64,000 nucleotides of DNA, taken from assembly GCA_018649725.1 (NCBI GenBank), contig JABIHH010000052.1, positions 37,406 to 101,405 of the forward strand. The letters are read 5' to 3'. The DNA is from Rhodospirillaceae bacterium. GTDB lineage: Bacteria > Pseudomonadota > Alphaproteobacteria > Rhodospirillales > UBA2165. Shown here in pieces: positions 33,986 through 41,357 of the stretch (position 1 is the first letter of the stretch; each line of letters opens with the position of its first letter). The notes beneath the pieces were generated by a model, which saw only the letters and a list, made by a program, of their open reading frames with translations, ran no database searches and was not told the DNA's origin. Position numbers and translations under genes: made by a program.

Positions 33986-34231
33986 ATGATGCAGACTGTA
34001 TTTGTCCAGGTTAAATGTGAACTCGGCCATGTGTATAGCGTCGCTGAGCAGGCGATTGAGACGGTTGATAAGATTTCAGAGATCCATTCGACGTCTGGGC
34101 AATTTGATTTGCTGATCAAATGTTATCTCGATGACAGCGATGATATTGGGCACTTTATCAATGAGAAAATTCAAACACTGCCCAACGTCAAAGACACTTA
34201 CACGCTTATCACCTTTAAAGCTTTTTCTTAA
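33986..34231 (+). CDS. stand-alone Lrp/AsnC ligand-binding (RAM) domain protein
   Basis: 81 aa. VFVQVKCELG....V......I..I.EIHSTSGQFDLLIKC......D.IGHFINEKIQTLPNVKDTYT matches the AsnC_trans_reg fold without a DNA-binding domain. GGGGAGAGA RBS. Confidence 0.8.
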   Translation: MMQTVFVQVKCELGHVYSVAEQAIETVDKISEIHSTSGQFDLLIKCYLDDSDDIGHFINEKIQTLPNVKDTYTLITFKAFS

Positions 34232-34249: not shown

Positions 34250-35902
34250 ATGGCAACCGCAATAAATTTCGATGGATTGGGTAGCGACGATAGTCGTCCG
34301 CTCGGCATTGATGTTGCAACGCGTGAATTTGTTCGCGCTTTTTTTCGCTGTAGCACGCAGGAGAAATTTCCTTGTGTCTGTCCCAATGATACGGCGCTTG
34401 GCCAATTCAAAGCTTACGCTCAGGACGAAAGAATAGATCCCGAGCGCTGTCATGGGGTTAATCAAAACGATGCCGACAGCTTAGAGCAGTCCGGTCATCT
34501 CTTTCGCTATGACCCGGGCTTTATCAAGCACGTCTGGGCTCGCCGCCAGTTTGGCCAGCAGCGCTATTCCATCAGCGGCCTAGTCCATGCAAGCTCAACC
34601 GACAGCGCGATGGAGACCTTCGGCCAATATCTGACCGCGCCAACGCAAAGTTGGGACGCACTGATTTGCCCCTCCAATTCAATCAAGTCCGCTGTTATGA
34701 CGGTGGTTGAGCATTGGCAGGATTATCTCAAGCAACGGACCGGCAGCGATTTCAAATGTCCGATGCAATTCCCGGTCATCCCGTTGGGCGTTGATACGCG
34801 GCATTTTAACGCCATCACCGGCGAGCCAAAGCGCAGCGAACAACGTGAACGCCTGAAAATTGAGAACGATGAGATCGTGATATTATATTCCGGCAGGCTC
34901 AACTTCATCGCTAAAGCCAACCCACTACCCCTTTTGCTAGGCGTCGAGCGCGCAGCGGTCGAAAGCAAAACACCGGTGCATTTGGTTTTCTGCGGCTACT
35001 TCAACGATGAGCTTAACGAACAAGCATTCAAGGAAGCCGCGGCCAGTGTTTGTAATTTAGCCAAGGTCTCTTTTATTCAGCATGGCGATACAGATTTCCC
35101 GGATGGATTTTGGGCAGGGGCGGATATTTTTTGCTCGCTCGCAGATAATATTCAAGAAAGTTTTGGCCTGACACCGATCGAAGCTATGGCTTCCGGTCTT
35201 CCGGTCGTGGTCTCCGATTGGGACGGCTACCGCGATACGGTGCGAGACGGCGTTGACGGGTATACCATTCCAACCTTGGCGCCGCGCAAAGGGCTCGGTG
35301 AAGATATCGCCTATAAATATTTTTCCAGCCAAAGTAATTATGGCGACCATTTAAGCGCGACCCAGCAATCGATTTCGATCGATCTAGACGAATTGGTCAA
35401 AGCCTTTAAGCATTTAATCGAAACCCCTTCTTTGCGCCAGAAAATGGGCGAAGCTGGTAAAGACCGCGCCAATGCTGTCTTTGCCTGGCCTCGGATTATA
35501 ATGGCTTATGAGGAATTGTGGGCGGAACTGGCAGAGCGGCGTGCGACGGCGGCGGAAAGCGCCCCTCGCGCAAAAGAAATGCCGTTTCACCCCTCTTACC
35601 CCGACCCTTTCGATATGTTTGCCGACTTCCCGTCCGAGCATTTCTCGGAATCGGGCGAGATTGAACTGGTGATCAAGAATTGGACCGAAGCGATGAAGCT
35701 TATCTCGCTCAAAGTCGGCTTCGTTTATCCGCATTCTTTGATCGAACTTGAAGACATGCCTTTTTTACTCGGCCATCTGGAGCCCGGCGCACCGGTACCG
35801 ATTAAAGTCCTAATTGATCTTCTACCCAAGCTTGATAGCAATAATCTGGTGCTGACTTTGGCCTGGCTAACCAAGCTTGGGATCTGTCGCTACCATCCAT
35901 AA
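34250..35902 (+). CDS. glycosyltransferase family 4 (GT-B, group 1) with N- and C-terminal extensions
   Basis: The E-x7-E region ESFGLTPIEAMASGLPVVVSDWDGYRDTV is typical of GT4. 550 aa. It starts 18 nt after the RAM-domain gene. Confidence 0.85.
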   Translation: MATAINFDGLGSDDSRPLGIDVATREFVRAFFRCSTQEKFPCVCPNDTALGQFKAYAQDERIDPERCHGVNQNDADSLEQSGHLFRYDPGFIKHVWARRQFGQQRYSISGLVHASSTDSAMETFGQYLTAPTQSWDALICPSNSIKSAVMTVVEHWQDYLKQRTGSDFKCPMQFPVIPLGVDTRHFNAITGEPKRSEQRERLKIENDEIVILYSGRLNFIAKANPLPLLLGVERAAVESKTPVHLVFCGYFNDELNEQAFKEAAASVCNLAKVSFIQHGDTDFPDGFWAGADIFCSLADNIQESFGLTPIEAMASGLPVVVSDWDGYRDTVRDGVDGYTIPTLAPRKGLGEDIAYKYFSSQSNYGDHLSATQQSISIDLDELVKAFKHLIETPSLRQKMGEAGKDRANAVFAWPRIIMAYEELWAELAERRATAAESAPRAKEMPFHPSYPDPFDMFADFPSEHFSESGEIELVIKNWTEAMKLISLKVGFVYPHSLIELEDMPFLLGHLEPGAPVPIKVLIDLLPKLDSNNLVLTLAWLTKLGICRYHP

Positions 35903-36031
35903 ACCCTACAGACCGTAAGGCCTAAGACCAATATTTAGCGAGATTGGGCTGGCAATCTGTGACTTGGCAAACTAAATTAACTTTAAATGAAACACCGCCC
36001 CTGACGGGCGAAGATTTTTCGGAGATTAAAT

Positions 36032-36910
36032 ATGTTTATCCAAACTGAGGCGATGCCGGATCCATCGCGTATGAAGTTTTTCCCAGGTGAAGTTGTCCTG
36101 ACTGCAGGCTCTGCTGAGTTCCTCGATGAGGAAGCCGCTGAACGCTCACCTTTGGCGGTACGCCTTTTCGAAATTGACGGCGTTGATGGCGTCATGCTCT
36201 ACACCGAATTTGTCACCGTGACCAAGGAAGAAGGCTTTGACTGGCAGCTCATGAAGCCGATGATCTTGGGAGCGATCATGGATCATTATACCGCAGGTGA
36301 TTTAGTGATTTTAGGCGTTACTGAGACAAGTGATGACGATTTAGAAGCCGAGCTCGCCGCCCTCTTTGTTGAGCGCGAAGAAGACCGCGAAGCGGTTGAG
36401 CAAATTAAAGAACTGATGGAAAGCCGCGTTGCCCCAGCCGCCGAACAAATGGGCGGCTCGGTTCTCTATAAGGGCTATCTCGAAGGCATCATCTATGTTG
36501 AGTTCGTTGGCCCAACCTCGGCTTTGGCCGGCGGCATGACGAACATCTTCGGTCACTACATCCCCGAAGTGCGCGCCGTTAAAGATTACCGCGATGCCAT
36601 CCCCAAACCGGGCTTGGAAACCGATGAAGGGCGCGCCATCCTACAAGTCTTGGATGAGCGTATCAATCCATCAATCGCCAGTCATGGCGGGCATATTTCG
36701 CTGATCGATGTTAAAGACAACAATGTCTATGTGCGCCTCGAAGGCGGCTGCCAGGGCTGCGGCATGGCCGATGTCACGTTGAAGCAAGGCGTCGAAGTCG
36801 AGATTAAAAATGTCGCGCCGCATATTATAGCTGTATTGGACGTCACCGATCACGCGGGTGGCTCGAACCCTTATTACGCACCTGGTAAAGGGGACGCACC
36901 TGCGAAGTAA
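36032..36910 (+). CDS. Nfu/NifU family Fe-S cluster carrier, three-module form
   Basis: Nfu_N domain (MFIQTE..PDPSRMKFFPG). A middle NifU-like module has lost the CxxC (GPTSALAGG where GACxxCPSS is expected). The C-terminal NfuA-like module has GGCQGCGMADVTLK and a TDHAGGSNPYY ending. GGAGA RBS. Confidence 0.85.
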   Translation: MFIQTEAMPDPSRMKFFPGEVVLTAGSAEFLDEEAAERSPLAVRLFEIDGVDGVMLYTEFVTVTKEEGFDWQLMKPMILGAIMDHYTAGDLVILGVTETSDDDLEAELAALFVEREEDREAVEQIKELMESRVAPAAEQMGGSVLYKGYLEGIIYVEFVGPTSALAGGMTNIFGHYIPEVRAVKDYRDAIPKPGLETDEGRAILQVLDERINPSIASHGGHISLIDVKDNNVYVRLEGGCQGCGMADVTLKQGVEVEIKNVAPHIIAVLDVTDHAGGSNPYYAPGKGDAPAK

Positions 36911-36915
36911 AGCTT

Positions 36916-38319
36916 ATGCAGGTTCTCCTTCTTTCAACCTATGATCTTGGCCACCAGCCCTTTAGCCTTGCCTCACCAGCGGCAAAGCTAAAATCTGCTG
37001 GCGCTGCAGTCACGTGCAATGATCTCGCCGTTGATAGTCTCAATGAAGACGCCGTCAAAGGGGCCGACCTAATCGGTCTCTATCTGCAAATGCATACCGC
37101 GACCCGGTTGTCGGTCGCCCTCCTGCCACGCTTGAAAGCGCTAAATCCAAAGGCTCATATCGCTTTTTATGGTCTCTATGCGCCGCTTAATGCCGACTAT
37201 CTAAAATCAATTGGCGGCGACAGTTTTATCGGCGGCGAGTTCGAGGACGGCTTGGTTGAGATTTATCTAGATCTGGCCGAAAGCAATCCTAGCGCTGGGT
37301 CCGACCTCACCTCAACCGCCAATCTCGATTTTGACCGCCCCTTACGCGACGACCTGCCGAGTTTGGATTGCTATGCCCACTTAAATGTCGGCGATGGCTC
37401 GACCAAAATCGTCGGCTATACCGAAGCCAGTCGAGGCTGCAAACATAAATGCCGTCATTGCCCCATCGTGCCAGTCTATCAGGGGCGCTTTCGCATTATT
37501 CCGGCGGATGTTGTGCTGGCTGATATTCGCCAGCAAATTAATCCAAAAAGCGGCCCGGCGGCTGAACATATCAGCTTTGGCGATCCCGATTTTCTCAATG
37601 GCCCGCGTCATGCCATGGATATTGTCACAGCCCTGCATGAAGAGTTTCCAGAAATCACCTATGATGCAACCATCAAGGTTGAGCACCTGCTCAAGCATGC
37701 CGATCTGTTACCAATGTTGAAAGAAACCGGCTGCCTGTTTATCACCACAGCCGTTGAGTCTGTCGAAGAGGATGTCCTGCGCCTACTCGACAAAGGGCAC
37801 ACCCATGATGACTTTAAACGCGCTGCGAAGCTTGCTCAGGAAATTGGCCTGACCTTGGCCCCAACGTTTGTTCCCTTCACGCCTTGGACCACCAAGCAAG
37901 GCTTCCGCCATTTGCTCGACACCATTGCCGAATTGGGTTTAGTGGAAAACGTCGCGCCGATCCAGCTTGCCATTCGCCTGCTGATCCCCAACGGCTCTTA
38001 TTTACTGGATCTGCCGGAAATTGAGCCACACCTTCTAGGTTATGATCAAGAAGCGCTTAGCCATCGCTGGCAGAATACAGATGAAAGCGTTGAAGAATTC
38101 TGCTCTCAAATCCAGGAAATTGTCGAAATTGGCGCGCGCGACAATCAGTCACGAATTGAGACCTTCAAGGCGCTCTATAAAGCGACCCAGCAGGCCTGCG
38201 GCATCGACACGCCAACCCTGCCCGACCTCCAACCCCTCCCATTGCTCACCATCCCCGCCATGAGCGAACCCTGGTTCTGTTGCGCTGAACCCTCACAAGA
38301 ACAACTCTCTCGCCTTTAA
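36916..38319 (+). CDS. B12-binding-domain radical SAM protein with C-terminal CCAEP tail
   Basis: N-terminal Rossmann-like B12-binding-type domain (VLLLSTYDLGHQP...), SAM cluster motif CKHKCRHC, C-terminus ...MSEPWFCCAEPSQEQLSRL (codons TGT TGC). It starts 5 nt after the nfu stop. Confidence 0.85.
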   Translation: MQVLLLSTYDLGHQPFSLASPAAKLKSAGAAVTCNDLAVDSLNEDAVKGADLIGLYLQMHTATRLSVALLPRLKALNPKAHIAFYGLYAPLNADYLKSIGGDSFIGGEFEDGLVEIYLDLAESNPSAGSDLTSTANLDFDRPLRDDLPSLDCYAHLNVGDGSTKIVGYTEASRGCKHKCRHCPIVPVYQGRFRIIPADVVLADIRQQINPKSGPAAEHISFGDPDFLNGPRHAMDIVTALHEEFPEITYDATIKVEHLLKHADLLPMLKETGCLFITTAVESVEEDVLRLLDKGHTHDDFKRAAKLAQEIGLTLAPTFVPFTPWTTKQGFRHLLDTIAELGLVENVAPIQLAIRLLIPNGSYLLDLPEIEPHLLGYDQEALSHRWQNTDESVEEFCSQIQEIVEIGARDNQSRIETFKALYKATQQACGIDTPTLPDLQPLPLLTIPAMSEPWFCCAEPSQEQLSRL

Positions 38320-38364
38320 ATCGTTAACATTGTAAAAAATACACTAGGTGTACTTTTTATACAT

Positions 38365-39627
38365 ATGAGTAATGGACACATGCCGCGCTTGCTGCTTCTC
38401 ATTCCATCGACATCGTACCGGGTGAGTGACTTTGTCACGGCGGCACACCGGCTGGGAGTCGATGTGACGATCGGCTCCAATGAACGCCAGGTTTTAGAAG
38501 CGCTTTCGGACGGTGGCAGCGTCACCATTGATTTTTCGAACCCCGATCAAGCGGTTGCCGAGATTGAAGTATTTCACAACAACCATCCCCTCAGAGCCGT
38601 CGTCGCGGTCGATGATGTTACCAGCGTCATAGCGGCCAAGGCTTCAGAGCAGCTTGGCTTTCGCCATAATGATCCGGCTGCCGTGCAGGCCACTGGCAAT
38701 AAATTGCTGTTGCGGGAGATTTTGTCGCACGCTGATCTTGCCTCGCCCAATTTTCGGCGCATTGCACTAGAAGACGGTCCAACGCCAATGGCTCAACAAA
38801 CAGACTATCCTTGCGTACTCAAGCCGCTCAATTTGTCGGCCAGCCAAGGCGTCATCCGCGCCAACGATCCGGCAGAGTTTATCGCCGCTTTCGAGCGTAT
38901 CAAGACCCTGGTCACTGACATTGGTGAAAAAGTCCCGCACAAACAGGCTGCGGAAATTTTAATCGAAGACTATATCGATGGCGAAGAAGTCGCTCTCGAA
39001 GGATTAATGGTCGAAGGCAAGCTAACCATGTTGGCTCTATTCGACAAACCCGATCCTTTGGAAGGCCCCTATTTCGAGGAAACCATCTATGTGACGCCGT
39101 CACGGAAATCTTTGGAACTTCAAGACTCTATTCGAAACATGGCAGAACAAGCCGCTAATGCCATTGGTCTGCATGAAGGCCCTCTCCATGTCGAACTTCG
39201 CGTTAAACCCGATGCCCGGGGTAGCAATGAAGCCGGTCCTTGGATCATTGAGATGGCCGCGCGCTCAATTGGCGGGCTATGTTCTAGGAGTTTGCAATTC
39301 GGTGACGACTTAACCCTCGAAGATATTATTTTGCGCCATGCGATGGGGGAGCCGGTCGTACCGGACCGCGAAGAAAAAGCTTCCGGCGTTATGATGATCC
39401 CGATTCCCAAAGCCGGCATTTTGGAACGCGTCGACGGTACGCTGGATGCACAAGCCGTCACCGGCATCACCGACCTCACCATTAGCATCGCGACCGGTCA
39501 AAAAGTCGTGCCACTGCCAGAGGGTAATAAGTATTTAGGGTTTATTTTTGCTAAAGCGGATAAGCCTGAAGACGTTGAGGCCGCTCTGCGGGCCGCTCAT
39601 GCAAAACTTGAAATCATCATCGCTTAA
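38365..39627 (+). CDS. ATP-grasp domain protein (L-amino-acid-ligase/carboxylate-amine ligase type)
   Basis: YPCVLKPLNLSASQGVIRA (ATP-grasp K loop), EDYIDGEEVALEG, LHVELR, and EMAARSIGG, which is typical of LAL-type ATP-grasp enzymes. Confidence 0.8.
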   Translation: MSNGHMPRLLLLIPSTSYRVSDFVTAAHRLGVDVTIGSNERQVLEALSDGGSVTIDFSNPDQAVAEIEVFHNNHPLRAVVAVDDVTSVIAAKASEQLGFRHNDPAAVQATGNKLLLREILSHADLASPNFRRIALEDGPTPMAQQTDYPCVLKPLNLSASQGVIRANDPAEFIAAFERIKTLVTDIGEKVPHKQAAEILIEDYIDGEEVALEGLMVEGKLTMLALFDKPDPLEGPYFEETIYVTPSRKSLELQDSIRNMAEQAANAIGLHEGPLHVELRVKPDARGSNEAGPWIIEMAARSIGGLCSRSLQFGDDLTLEDIILRHAMGEPVVPDREEKASGVMMIPIPKAGILERVDGTLDAQAVTGITDLTISIATGQKVVPLPEGNKYLGFIFAKADKPEDVEAALRAAHAKLEIIIA

Positions 39628-40667
39628 GAACAAATCTCGGCAAACAGATCAGCGGCGCGGCTCACTCCTGCCTCATCAACATCCAGATGCGTCACTGCCC
39701 GCATGCTCGTTGGGTTCATCGCACCCATGCGAACACCCCCAGCCAGCAAACGCTCTGAAATTTCAGGCGCAGATAAAGCCGCCTCACCAACGTCGATGAT
39801 TAAAATATTGGTCTCGACTGTCAGCGGGTCAATTTTTACGCCTGGAATTTGTGCCAGCCGGGTCGCTAGAGTGCGGGCATTGGCGTGATCGATGGCCAGT
39901 CGGTCGACATTATGATCCAACGCATACAGCCCGGCGGCTGCCAAAACACCTGATTGCCGCATCGAGCCGCCGAGGCGCTGCTTCCACGGCCAGGCCTGCT
40001 CGATAAAGTCTTTGGTGCCCGCAATCACGCCGCCGATTGGACAGCCGAGCCCTTTCGAAAGATCAATCCACACCGTATCGACGGTTGCCGCGTAATCTTT
40101 GGCAGAGACACCGCTTGCAACAACCGCATTGAGCAGACGCGCGCCGTCCATATGGCTGACAAGATTGTGCTCGGCGGCCAATTCCTTGAGCGATTGCAAT
40201 ACTGCCAACGGCCAAATACTACCACCGCCCAAATTGGCCGTCTGCTCGACGGCGATCATCTTTGAGCTTGGTGCATGACGAAAGCCGGCCCGCAAAGCTT
40301 CCCTAGCCTGCTCAAGCGTATACTGGCCACGTATACCATCCAGAGGCTTAATCATGGCGCGGGCAATTACCGCCGGACCGCCTGCTTCAAAATTAATGAT
40401 ATGCGCCGTCTTGTCGGCAATGATTTCATCGCCCGGCTGACATTGCACCGCCATCGCGATTTGGTTGCACATTGTGCCGGACGGCACGAACAGAGCAGCC
40501 TCTTTACCGAGCAAATCGGCAACACGCTCTTGCAGTGCCAGCGTGGTCGGATCTTCACCCGCCTGCTCATCACCGCATTCAGCCTGCATCATCGCATCAA
40601 GCATGGCCTGGCTTGGTTTAGTTTTGGTGTCGCTAAACAACTCGATTTCTATTGTGCTCATATCCAA
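39624..40667 (-). CDS. ltaE: low-specificity L-threonine aldolase (beta-eliminating lyase family, PLP)
   Basis: DTKTKPSQAMLDAM...GDEQAGEDPT start and the PLP-lysine context DLSKGLG. 347 aa. Convergent with the ATP-grasp gene with a 4-bp overlap. Confidence 0.85.
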   Translation of the reverse strand: MDMSTIEIELFSDTKTKPSQAMLDAMMQAECGDEQAGEDPTTLALQERVADLLGKEAALFVPSGTMCNQIAMAVQCQPGDEIIADKTAHIINFEAGGPAVIARAMIKPLDGIRGQYTLEQAREALRAGFRHAPSSKMIAVEQTANLGGGSIWPLAVLQSLKELAAEHNLVSHMDGARLLNAVVASGVSAKDYAATVDTVWIDLSKGLGCPIGGVIAGTKDFIEQAWPWKQRLGGSMRQSGVLAAAGLYALDHNVDRLAIDHANARTLATRLAQIPGVKIDPLTVETNILIIDVGEAALSAPEISERLLAGGVRMGAMNPTSMRAVTHLDVDEAGVSRAADLFAEICS

Positions 40668-40721
40668 CTCGACATTGATGAAACCTTTGCATCTTTCTGC
40701 CCGATTTTATACTCTCCGTCT

Positions 40722-41357
40722 ATGCGTTATCCAAAAATACTCATTGCAGCAGGATTGCTAATCTTGCTAGTCGGTGCCTTGTTCATTCGCCATCAGGAAG
40801 CGGGTTACATCGCATATTTAAACGGAAATTTTAAAACTGCCGAGGCTGAATTCATAAAACGTGCAGAAAATGGTGGCATGTGGGAGGCCTATCTCGTTGG
40901 CTCAATGAACGAAAACCCAACCTTCCGCGTGAGGAATCTGGCTCAAGCAAGCAAAGCTTATTTAAACAGTGCTGAGCTTGGAAATGTCGCCGGTGCGATG
41001 AAATATATTCTATTTATCAATCACTCCGCTCACCGCAATATAGATTGCACGACATTAAACAGACTGACCGAAAGGGCGATCCAAACTCATCATTTTGTTG
41101 CCGTCCACACAATGGAGCGCCGATTTCTCAGGAATAGTTGCAGCAAGCTCGATAAACTCAAAAGCCTGCAATACACCAAATGGGCAGGAGAATTAGAACC
41201 GCAATATGGGTCTAATTTTCATCGTGAATATCAGAACCTGACTACCGTAGAACGCAAGAAATTTGACGGTACAAAACTCCAAAAGCCGTCCCGTATCAGT
41301 GATGCCGAATTTTTAAAATTCTTCTTTGCGACACTCGCGCAGATCAAGCCAGCCTAA
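40722..41357 (+). CDS. membrane-anchored hypothetical protein, possibly Sel1-like repeat
   Basis: ATG 40722 gives MRYPKILIAAGLLILLVGALFI (a single TM or signal anchor). Weak Sel1-like A..y...AE.GN..A motifs follow. The ORF-track N-terminal extension (from 40275) is antisense to ltaE and is rejected. The gene looks AT-rich by eye. Confidence 0.55.
   Translation: MRYPKILIAAGLLILLVGALFIRHQEAGYIAYLNGNFKTAEAEFIKRAENGGMWEAYLVGSMNENPTFRVRNLAQASKAYLNSAELGNVAGAMKYILFINHSAHRNIDCTTLNRLTERAIQTHHFVAVHTMERRFLRNSCSKLDKLKSLQYTKWAGELEPQYGSNFHREYQNLTTVERKKFDGTKLQKPSRISDAEFLKFFFATLAQIKPA

Follow-up and report, generated by a model that had tools for sequence, protein, structure and literature searches.

What does a radical S-adenosylmethionine (SAM) enzyme ending in a vicinal cysteine pair make together with the ATP-grasp ligase encoded beside it? 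The question is raised by a locus of a Rhodospirillaceae bacterium, analyzed here within a 64,000-nt stretch of contig JABIHH010000052.1 (the window; coordinates are window positions unless another sequence is named). Three co-directional, plus-strand ORFs occupy positions 36032-39627 and encode a long Nfu-type iron-sulfur (Fe-S) carrier (36032-36910; 292 aa), the radical SAM enzyme (rSAM; 36916-38319; 467 aa), and the ATP-grasp protein (38365-39627; 420 aa as the longest ORF). A preliminary description of this DNA had singled out the three genes together with a CKHKCRHC motif and a CCAEP tail in rSAM and the motif EMAARSIGG in the ATP-grasp protein, all of which we recovered in place. The ORF calls leave gaps of 5 and 45 nt, as that description had it, and the first gap stands; the second is 60 nt, because homologues and other gene callers begin the ATP-grasp gene at the ATG at 38380 (38380-39627, plus strand; 415 aa). 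We found that the closest characterized relative of rSAM is ArsL and that rSAM and the ligase travel together. The reading that we favor, tentatively, is that rSAM would make a γ-substituted 2-aminobutyrate on an atom presented by its tail, and that the ligase would turn this product into a dipeptide.

The radical SAM enzyme and its relation to ArsL

In profile searches, rSAM matched NCBIfam model NF040546, 'CUAEP/CCAEP-tail radical SAM (seleno)protein', with 582.3 bits (E = 6.7e-175) against a curated cutoff of 500 bits, the match spanning residues 3-465 on model positions 1-467. Membership in this family, suggested in the preliminary description, was thereby confirmed, the features noted there are not the product of chance, and the rSAM gene itself is not new in that its family is already curated. 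Our literature search on the CUAEP/CCAEP-tail family found nothing beyond one preprint (Haft, 2022), which calls the family uncharacterized and describes CU motifs as rare and associated with metals or heavy-metal handling. No paper was found on the pairing of rSAM with the ATP-grasp protein.

The Radical_SAM domain of the protein was detected by Pfam (PF04055; 52 bits). Its CKHKCRHC motif (37438-37461, plus strand; residues 175-182) contains the CxxxCxxC cysteines Cys175, Cys179, and Cys182, which are invariant in 120 members of the NF040546 family and in four ArsL-like proteins and are predicted to ligate the SAM-cleaving [4Fe-4S] cluster. Two further core cysteines are specific to the family, Cys34 (113 of 120 members) and Cys273 (119 of 120). 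The AF2 model (overall pLDDT, 89.4) comprises a Rossmann-like domain at the N-terminus that resembles B12-binding domains, the radical SAM barrel, and the C-terminal tail; Foldseek returned AprD4 as its best match (TM 0.67), with TsrM, MgmA, MiaB, and OxsB among the near neighbors and PylB as a remote match. What had been described as a B12-binding domain is B12-like at the level of fold only, by its likeness to AprD4, TsrM, and OxsB: the PF02310 match reached 15.2 bits (E = 0.019), where the cutoff is 32.1. Dependence of rSAM on cobalamin was not supported. SPASM, twitch, and RRE domains were not detected even at E = 10.

As judged by these searches, ArsL is the only close characterized relative of rSAM. 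Its model (NF040542) was the second-best NCBIfam match, with 271.2 bits over residues 3-401, short of the 450-bit cutoff for membership, and each of the remaining named radical SAM families scored 40 bits or less. To our knowledge, ArsL is the sole canonical-fold radical SAM enzyme so far known to cut the Cγ-S bond of SAM. Published work on ArsL describes a canonical fold and canonical SAM binding, yet SAM is converted to methylthioadenosine (MTA) and a 3-amino-3-carboxypropyl (ACP) radical or Fe-bound ACP. The cysteines of its C-terminal RCCLKC tail bind As(III), the acceptor of ACP, and the tail binds no cluster; the enzyme was reconstituted in vitro, with cobalamin unmentioned. Activity on methylarsenite was highest in a variant whose tail was shortened to 'MCCA'; a bare CC-A is thus sufficient for presenting an atom.

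Annotated ArsL/RCCLKC-tail plasmid proteins showed 28-33% identity to the window rSAM over residues 1-395/406 (tblastn; E = 1e-43 to 1e-52), 37 positions were invariant across the 120 family members and the four ArsL-like proteins, and a MAFFT alignment placed Cys455 and Cys456 of rSAM opposite the CC of the RCCLKC tail. The two kinds of protein have in common a two-domain architecture, the CxxxCxxC core, and a C-terminal tail that is rich in cysteine and contains the aligned vicinal pair. They differ in that the CCAEP/CUAEP tail follows a linker about 35 residues longer and lacks the third tail cysteine, the RCCLKC motif with its three As(III)-binding cysteines being absent from the window rSAM; in that aliphatic residues stand in the ArsL-like proteins at the positions of Cys34 and Cys273; and in that no selenocysteine (Sec) form occurred among the four ArsL-like tails read. 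Family size differs as well: at least 596 stretches encoding an rSAM relative were found in species-representative genomes (GTDB), compared with 147 sequences cited for the ArsL family. From this genome scan, 80 loci were retained as the sample for gene neighborhoods and tails. Genes for arsM, arsQ, arsN, ArsR, and efflux were absent from the window and did not recur among the 80 loci. By contrast, all ArsL-type clusters that we inspected are part of an arsenic island (arsM, arsQ, arsN, ArsR). No solved ArsL structure was present in the PDB as searched, and the sister relationship between the CUAEP/CCAEP family and ArsL is absent from the searchable literature.

The C-terminal tail

The last 19 residues of rSAM, MSEPWFCCAEPSQEQLSRL, are encoded at 38260-38316 (to 38319 with the stop codon) on the plus strand and include CCAEP at residues 455-459. 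The vicinal pair occupies 38278-38283, with Cys455 encoded by TGT (38278-38280) and Cys456 by TGC (38281-38283); the window gene is the Cys form. Nearly all of the 120 homologues carry the motif SEPW[FY]CCAEP, and five stop at ...EPWYC. The tail was readable at 75 loci; the codon for the second cysteine was TGA in 38 of them, TGC in 33, and TGT in 4, and the reading frame was kept past TGA (AEPT..Q still in frame). A hairpin resembling a Sec insertion sequence (SECIS) was found downstream of the TGA forms only, beginning about 15 nt after the TGA; it had a median stem of 7 bp and a minimum free energy of -11.3 kcal/mol, as against 4 bp and -6.3 kcal/mol in the Cys forms (Mann-Whitney p ~1e-8, a value inflated by the relatedness of the sequences). 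Replacement of the second cysteine by Sec, which the preliminary description had expected in some species, thus concerns about half of the homologues. The exchange of Sec and Cys at this position, together with the SECIS-like hairpin, indicates a direct chemical role for the residue. No correlation was seen between the Sec/Cys state and the presence of the ligase (20/29 vs. 25/34).

A cultured organism provides one such selenoprotein in truncated annotation. On megaplasmid NC_011961.1 of Thermomicrobium roseum DSM 5159 (796591-798027; L089:8935-10440), the RefSeq/PGAP coding sequence ends at an in-frame TGA (…ESWFC), and read-through gives ESWFC*AEPLED… and about 23 residues more. No ATP-grasp gene lies within 9 kb of this rSAM gene.

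The ATP-grasp ligase

Three Pfam domains were identified in the window ATP-grasp protein, ATPgrasp_N (44.8 bits), ATP-grasp_4 (115 bits), and LAL_C2 (60 bits), all above their gathering cutoffs, and its best PDB sequence match was the L-amino-acid ligase BL00235 (3VOT; E = 6e-32). Its AF2 model (pLDDT 86.4) was matched by Foldseek to 3VOT (TM 0.83), YwfE/BacD (0.78-0.81), and RizA (0.73). Three of the four distinct top fold matches are L-amino-acid ligases; a protein annotated as PurD (4DIM; 0.68) also ranks among the top, before PurT and biotin carboxylases. By domains and fold, the protein is therefore predicted to be an enzyme of the L-amino-acid-ligase type, as had been proposed from its EMAARSIGG motif, and this assignment implies a free α-amino acid as substrate.

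The window ligase has the ATPgrasp_N, ATP-grasp_4, and LAL_C2 domains and the ExAAR..GG motif in common with BL00235, BacD, and RizA, but is only 18-25% identical to them. None of the NCBIfam equivalog cutoffs was reached, with 53.6 bits for BacD (cutoff, 850) and 48.7 bits for DdaF (cutoff, 840), and PylC was matched only at E = 6.5e-4. The protein represents a well-conserved subfamily of its own, with a mean column identity of 65% and invariant Cys145 and Cys301. Its best plasmid matches were Streptomyces and Pantoea proteins at about 30% identity.

ArsL-like clusters with an RCCLKC-tail radical SAM gene occur on Firmicutes plasmids of Alicyclobacillus (L091:118-5272), Bacillus cereus (L092:1139-9537), and Priestia (L093:2330-9522). 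Each holds an uncharacterized ATP-grasp gene of the L-amino-acid-ligase type, with the domain architecture of the window ligase, as well as a gene for a small CMD-family protein and a 'GTP-binding protein' gene, the B. cereus copy of which is CobW-like by Pfam. An arsinothricin-like amino acid may be produced as a peptide in these three bacteria. We considered whether the ligases of these clusters are the nearest annotated relatives of the window ligase, so that the two systems would form sister pairs, and rejected the idea; the Alicyclobacillus ligase is only 23% identical. The resemblance between the two systems is limited to enzyme type.

A two-gene cassette and its neighbors

Partners of rSAM were sought by an unbiased clustering of all flanking ORFs, followed by tblastn. 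Of the 66 loci with enough downstream sequence, 47 had an ATP-grasp homologue, and in 34 it lay immediately downstream on the same strand; in several others, a DUF169 gene separated it from rSAM. By lineage, it was found in 24/30 Acidobacteriota, 7/9 Alphaproteobacteria, 7/9 Beta/Gammaproteobacteria, and 0/6 Chloroflexota loci, and it occurred in further phyla as well. The 19 loci without a ligase shared no alternative conserved partner; their neighbors were an assortment of GFO/IDH oxidoreductase, arginase, glutamate synthase domain, circularly permuted ATP-grasp, histone-deacetylase-family, and short-chain dehydrogenase genes.

Comparison of related loci separated the cassette from its surroundings. 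In L098 (Nfu P0338) and L100 (Nfu P0335), which share the backbone of the window, the gene order is DEAD helicase, AsnC-like, glycosyltransferase, Nfu, aldolase (minus strand), HhH-GPD (minus strand), GloB, and MFS (minus strand); Nfu runs almost directly into the aldolase gene, with neither rSAM nor ligase between. In L099 and L101, the order is Nfu, rSAM, ligase, and aldolase. It follows from these gene orders that rSAM and the ligase were gained or lost together, as a two-gene cassette, and that glycosyltransferase, Nfu, and aldolase belong to the backbone. The cassette occurs in hundreds of soil and marine bacterial species; neither its behavior as a unit nor the cross-phylum partnership with the ligase is described in the searchable literature.

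The same comparison places the aldolase outside the pathway. In the window, a PLP aldolase ORF on the minus strand (39624-40667) converges on the ATP-grasp gene with a 4-nt overlap, and the preliminary description had suggested that it could supply or remove a β-hydroxy amino acid. As a backbone gene that persists without rSAM and ligase, it was rejected as a pathway member, as was the glycosyltransferase, both of which stay with Nfu in L098 and L100. In the 80 loci, a glycosyltransferase recurred once and an aldolase twice.

A second recurrent partner of rSAM is DUF169 (PF02596; COG2043), absent from the window. It lies downstream of rSAM, often between rSAM and the ATP-grasp gene, in about 10 of the 80 loci (L006, L007, L017, L030, L041, L058, L061, L071, L072, and L080). 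No small ORF family recurred in the 80 loci except for an antisense artefact, and the only small ORF near the gaps of the window cassette is a 34-codon TTG ORF that overlaps the nfu start.

Two contexts occurred once each. In a Pyrinomonadaceae metagenome-assembled genome (JAICGZ010000062.1; L061:8761-13042), a Sec-form rSAM gene is followed by DUF169, a UbiE-like methyltransferase, and a protein in which a CdhD-like corrinoid domain is fused to transmembrane segments and a 2x[4Fe-4S] ferredoxin, and which the HgcA-like cap-helix motif DVWCAAGGG identifies as a fused HgcAB-like protein; this context was seen in 1 of the 80 loci. A preprint describes UbiE and DUF169 beside HgcA-like genes of Nitrospina. 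In the cultured alphaproteobacterium Ferruginivarius sediminum (QPMH01000003.1; L102:2262-9915), the same-strand genes cysG, DUF2849, sulfite reductase (cysI), DUF934, and PAPS reductase (cysH) precede rSAM, which is followed by a flavoprotein of the lipoamide-dehydrogenase type, with no ATP-grasp gene nearby. A link to sulfate assimilation or disulfide reduction was considered from the latter context and rejected, as it is 1 of about 100 loci and the 'reductase' carries the lipoamide dehydrogenase signature. Both contexts are weak leads on the acceptor atom.

The Nfu carrier

The window Nfu is made up of three domains, namely Nfu_N (PF08712; 89.3 bits), a middle domain that is NifU-like but devoid of cysteine, and NifU (PF01106; 97 bits), which carries the motif GGCQGCG, and this architecture and motif are kept in the operon-linked copies. 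The NfuA equivalog model was not reached (84.5 bits; cutoff, 269). Fe-S carriers of the NfuA type serve radical SAM enzymes, as NfuA does LipA. The window protein resembles NfuA in the CxxC of its NifU domain, in its NfuA-like C-terminus, and in the position of its gene directly upstream of a radical SAM gene; it differs in having three domains and 292 aa and in occurring alone or beside the ligase without rSAM.

Nfu-type genes flank rSAM in 13 loci, mostly alphaproteobacterial, the copy in L071 having a different N-terminal domain. Of the two neighbors that the preliminary description had named as partners, the ligase is widespread and Nfu is not. Its designation of Nfu as a dedicated Fe-S carrier was likewise weakened, since Nfu stands alone in the same backbone (L098 and L100). 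Nevertheless, the long Nfu adjoins the ligase in 7/7 contexts examined, including non-syntenic ones, both with rSAM (L097) and without it (L081/L082, L083/L084, and L095); because the pairing recurs outside the shared gene order, the link between Nfu and ligase is not only one of synteny. In the rSAM-free contexts (L081/L082:4725-7275, L083/L084:5112-7293, and L095:4126-6221), orthologues of the window ATP-grasp protein (55-57% identity) are encoded directly beside a long protein of the Nfu_N+NifU type; in two of the three, the genes are 26-38 bp apart. No rSAM gene was found by tblastn within ±6 kb in L081-L084 or among the called genes within ±5 kb in L095. It may be that Nfu and the ligase constitute an independent unit. 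For the window, we consider that Nfu probably supplies the rSAM cluster as a lineage-restricted neighbor that is not exclusive to the cassette.

Proposed mechanism and alternatives

The homology to ArsL, the tail alignment, and the partnership with a free-amino-acid ligase, together with the Sec/Cys exchange in the tail, the cassette behavior, and the ligases of ArsL-like clusters, are the reasons for tentatively favoring an ArsL-like ACP transfer followed by dipeptide ligation. In this proposal, rSAM and the ATP-grasp enzyme would constitute a two-gene accessory module for a small peptide-like metabolite. By homology to ArsL, the cluster on Cys175, Cys179, and Cys182 would reductively cut the Cγ-S bond of SAM to give MTA and an ACP fragment in radical or iron-bound form. 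The flexible tail, with its Cys-Cys (elsewhere Cys-Sec), would present a soft acceptor atom to this fragment, possibly with the help of Cys273 and Cys34. A new carbon-heteroatom bond would result and a γ-substituted 2-aminobutyrate would be released, the acceptor being perhaps sulfur, selenium, or a metalloid. The products of ACP transfer are α-amino acids, and a ligase for free amino acids is accordingly the enzyme expected next; judging from fold and gene linkage, the ATP-grasp enzyme would join the γ-substituted amino acid to a second amino acid or an amine. In the Alphaproteobacteria, loading or repair of the rSAM cluster is probably the task of the neighboring long Nfu. The system would thus plausibly work like ArsL while falling outside the ArsL family by the tests applied here.

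Known systems provide parallels for both halves of this scheme. In PylB/PylC, the non-proteinogenic amino acid produced by a radical SAM enzyme is coupled to a second amino acid by an adjacently encoded ATP-grasp ligase, so the likeness is one of function; the window proteins are not orthologous to this pair, and PylB uses canonical 5'-deoxyadenosyl (5'-dA) chemistry and has no Cys-rich tail. The C-terminal …CCAG arm of MerA delivers a soft metal ion to an active site in the protein interior, and the GCUG arm of high-Mr thioredoxin reductase shuttles electrons. The rSAM tail is comparable to these arms as a flexible C-terminal vicinal dithiol or selenolthiol with interchange of Cys and Sec, but is carried on a radical SAM barrel rather than on a flavoprotein disulfide reductase.

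Several observations weigh against this proposal. An identity to ArsL of about 30% does not decide at which of its C-S bonds SAM would be cleaved, no sequence determinant of this regiochemistry being known even for ArsL. The rSAM tail was modeled at a pLDDT of only 66-82. The ligases of ArsL-type clusters, at 23% identity, are not the nearest relatives of the window ligase. In 19 of the 66 loci, including those of T. roseum and F. sediminum and all six from Chloroflexota, rSAM has no ligase nearby, and in three contexts the ligase stands beside Nfu without rSAM. Finally, arsenic, mercury, and other metal genes were not recurrent beside the family in the 80 loci, where the neighbors are housekeeping genes.

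The alternative that survives best, possible though somewhat doubtful, is canonical chemistry, in which a 5'-dA radical would modify a free amino acid or small molecule (by isomerization, dehydration, or C-C bond formation), the tail would act as a hydrogen-atom or electron shuttle, and the ligase would couple the product. The complete CxxxCxxC core is consistent with this, as is the closest solved fold, that of AprD4, which uses canonical 5'-dA chemistry on a small-molecule substrate. The tail could serve as the redox shuttle that vicinal Cys-Sec or Cys-Cys arms form in high-Mr thioredoxin reductase, with the conserved Cys34 and Cys273 completing a thiol relay, and canonical radical SAM amino-acid mutases are paired with ATP-grasp ligases in pathways of the PylB/PylC and BlsG type. 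The nearest characterized relative by a wide margin is, however, ArsL, which makes no 5'-dA; the canonical families all score 40 bits or less, and the CC of the tail aligns with the acceptor-binding CC of ArsL. It is here that the preliminary description, which saw in the tail a redox-active swinging arm, is to be amended: such an arm is possible, but the closest relative had been overlooked, and its Cys-rich tail binds the acceptor atom.

We consider it improbable that an auxiliary Fe-S cluster, persulfide, or perselenide, borne by Cys34, Cys273, and the tail Cys-Cys/Sec, is spent as a sulfur or selenium donor in the manner of LipA, BioB, or MiaB and rebuilt by Nfu. The four family-specific conserved Cys/Sec positions beyond the cluster motif would suit such a site, MiaB is among the structural neighbors of rSAM, and NfuA regenerates the sacrificial cluster of LipA; NifU-domain carriers with different N-terminal domains were recruited beside rSAM in several lineages, and the F. 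sediminum gene follows cysG-cysI-cysH on the same strand. Yet Nfu is absent from the neighborhood in Acidobacteriota, Chloroflexota, and Beta/Gammaproteobacteria, the homologous tail of ArsL does not bind a cluster, and the cys-operon context is limited to 1 of about 100 loci. We know of no precedent for Sec as an Fe-S ligand.

Less probable again is a diphthamide-like role, in which rSAM would modify a protein or RNA, by addition of ACP or by other radical chemistry, and the ATP-grasp enzyme would amidate or extend the new carboxylate. ACP transfer followed by ATP-dependent amidation is the logic of Dph2 and then Dph6, and the broad, vertical distribution of the family and its housekeeping neighborhoods, with no exporter or resistance genes, would fit. 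The ligase, however, has the complete architecture and fold of a free-amino-acid ligase, no candidate target gene is recurrent nearby, and the presence or absence of the cassette among close relatives is more easily reconciled with an accessory metabolite than with a core modification of translation.

Still more unlikely, in our estimate, is that rSAM acts on arsenic, antimony, or mercury with a function equal or close to that of ArsL, its Cys-Cys/Sec binding As(III) or methylarsenite and its arsinothricin-type product being converted by the ligase into a Trojan-horse dipeptide. The homology and the aligned tails speak for it, along with the activity of the 'MCCA' variant on methylarsenite, the ligases of the same type in the Firmicutes ArsL-like clusters, the tie between CU motifs and heavy-metal handling (Haft, 2022), and the L061 locus, where rSAM stands beside DUF169, a methyltransferase, and the fused HgcAB-like gene. 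Against these stand a score below the ArsL cutoff, the missing third tail cysteine, and an HgcAB-like context confined to a single locus of the 80; arsenic is an unlikely acceptor because the family lies among housekeeping genes without recurrent ars genes, the inspected ArsL-type clusters lying without exception in arsenic islands. Maturation of a ribosomally synthesized and post-translationally modified peptide, in some clusters for which radical SAM and ATP-grasp enzymes are paired, was rejected as highly improbable: as already stated in the preliminary description, there is no credible precursor ORF in the gaps of 5 and 45-60 nt, the sole small ORF nearby overlapping the nfu start, SPASM, twitch, and RRE domains and a recurrent small ORF family are lacking as described above, and the ligase is of the free-amino-acid type.

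Other features of the locus

A terminator-like hairpin, CGCCCCTGACGGGCG, followed by a T-run was picked up by a consensus scan on the plus strand at 35996-36010, between the glycosyltransferase gene and nfu. It may mark the upstream edge of an nfu-rSAM-ligase transcription unit, although terminator-like sites in the region were not more numerous than in shuffled sequence and the evidence is correspondingly weak. The gap that separates the rSAM and ligase genes contains a short AT-rich inverted repeat (AAAAAA-TACAC-TAG-GTGTA-C-TTTTT; 38334-38358), which is below the strength required in the terminator scan and could be an attenuator or operator.

Upstream of the operon, an 81-aa ORF (33986-34231) encodes the AsnC/Lrp ligand-binding domain alone, without the DNA-binding HTH, and is followed 18 nt downstream by a gene for a 550-aa GT4 glycosyltransferase (34250-35902). 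The pair is kept in the syntenic backbone (L024 and L099-L101), with or without the rSAM cassette. Downstream, the 360-aa ORF at 40275-41357 is probably over-extended, its 5' part being antisense to the aldolase gene; other gene callers start this gene at about 40722, giving 211 aa without a Pfam match.

Implications

The ArsL family is small and tied to arsenic islands, whereas its CUAEP/CCAEP sister family is much larger. It is conceivable, if rather speculative, that the latter is a second and far more widespread ArsL-type non-canonical clade, one that builds a carbon-chalcogen or carbon-metalloid bond on an atom borne by a Cys-Sec arm and, with its dedicated ligase, yields a hitherto undescribed sulfur, selenium, or metalloid dipeptide in soil Acidobacteriota, which are abundant, and marine Alphaproteobacteria. 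The two-gene cassette and the existence of cultured carriers (T. roseum DSM 5159, F. sediminum, and Nonomuraea sp. NPDC050783) make this hypothesis directly testable. Should the tail instead serve canonical chemistry in a redox capacity, rSAM would be the first radical SAM enzyme with a Cys-Sec arm like that of thioredoxin reductase. If the larger sister family does apply the chemistry of ArsL to a different atom, non-canonical catalysis by radical SAM enzymes would be a widespread trait of soil and ocean bacteria, an orphan selenoprotein family would gain a function, and the cassette would point to an undiscovered amino-acid or dipeptide metabolite.

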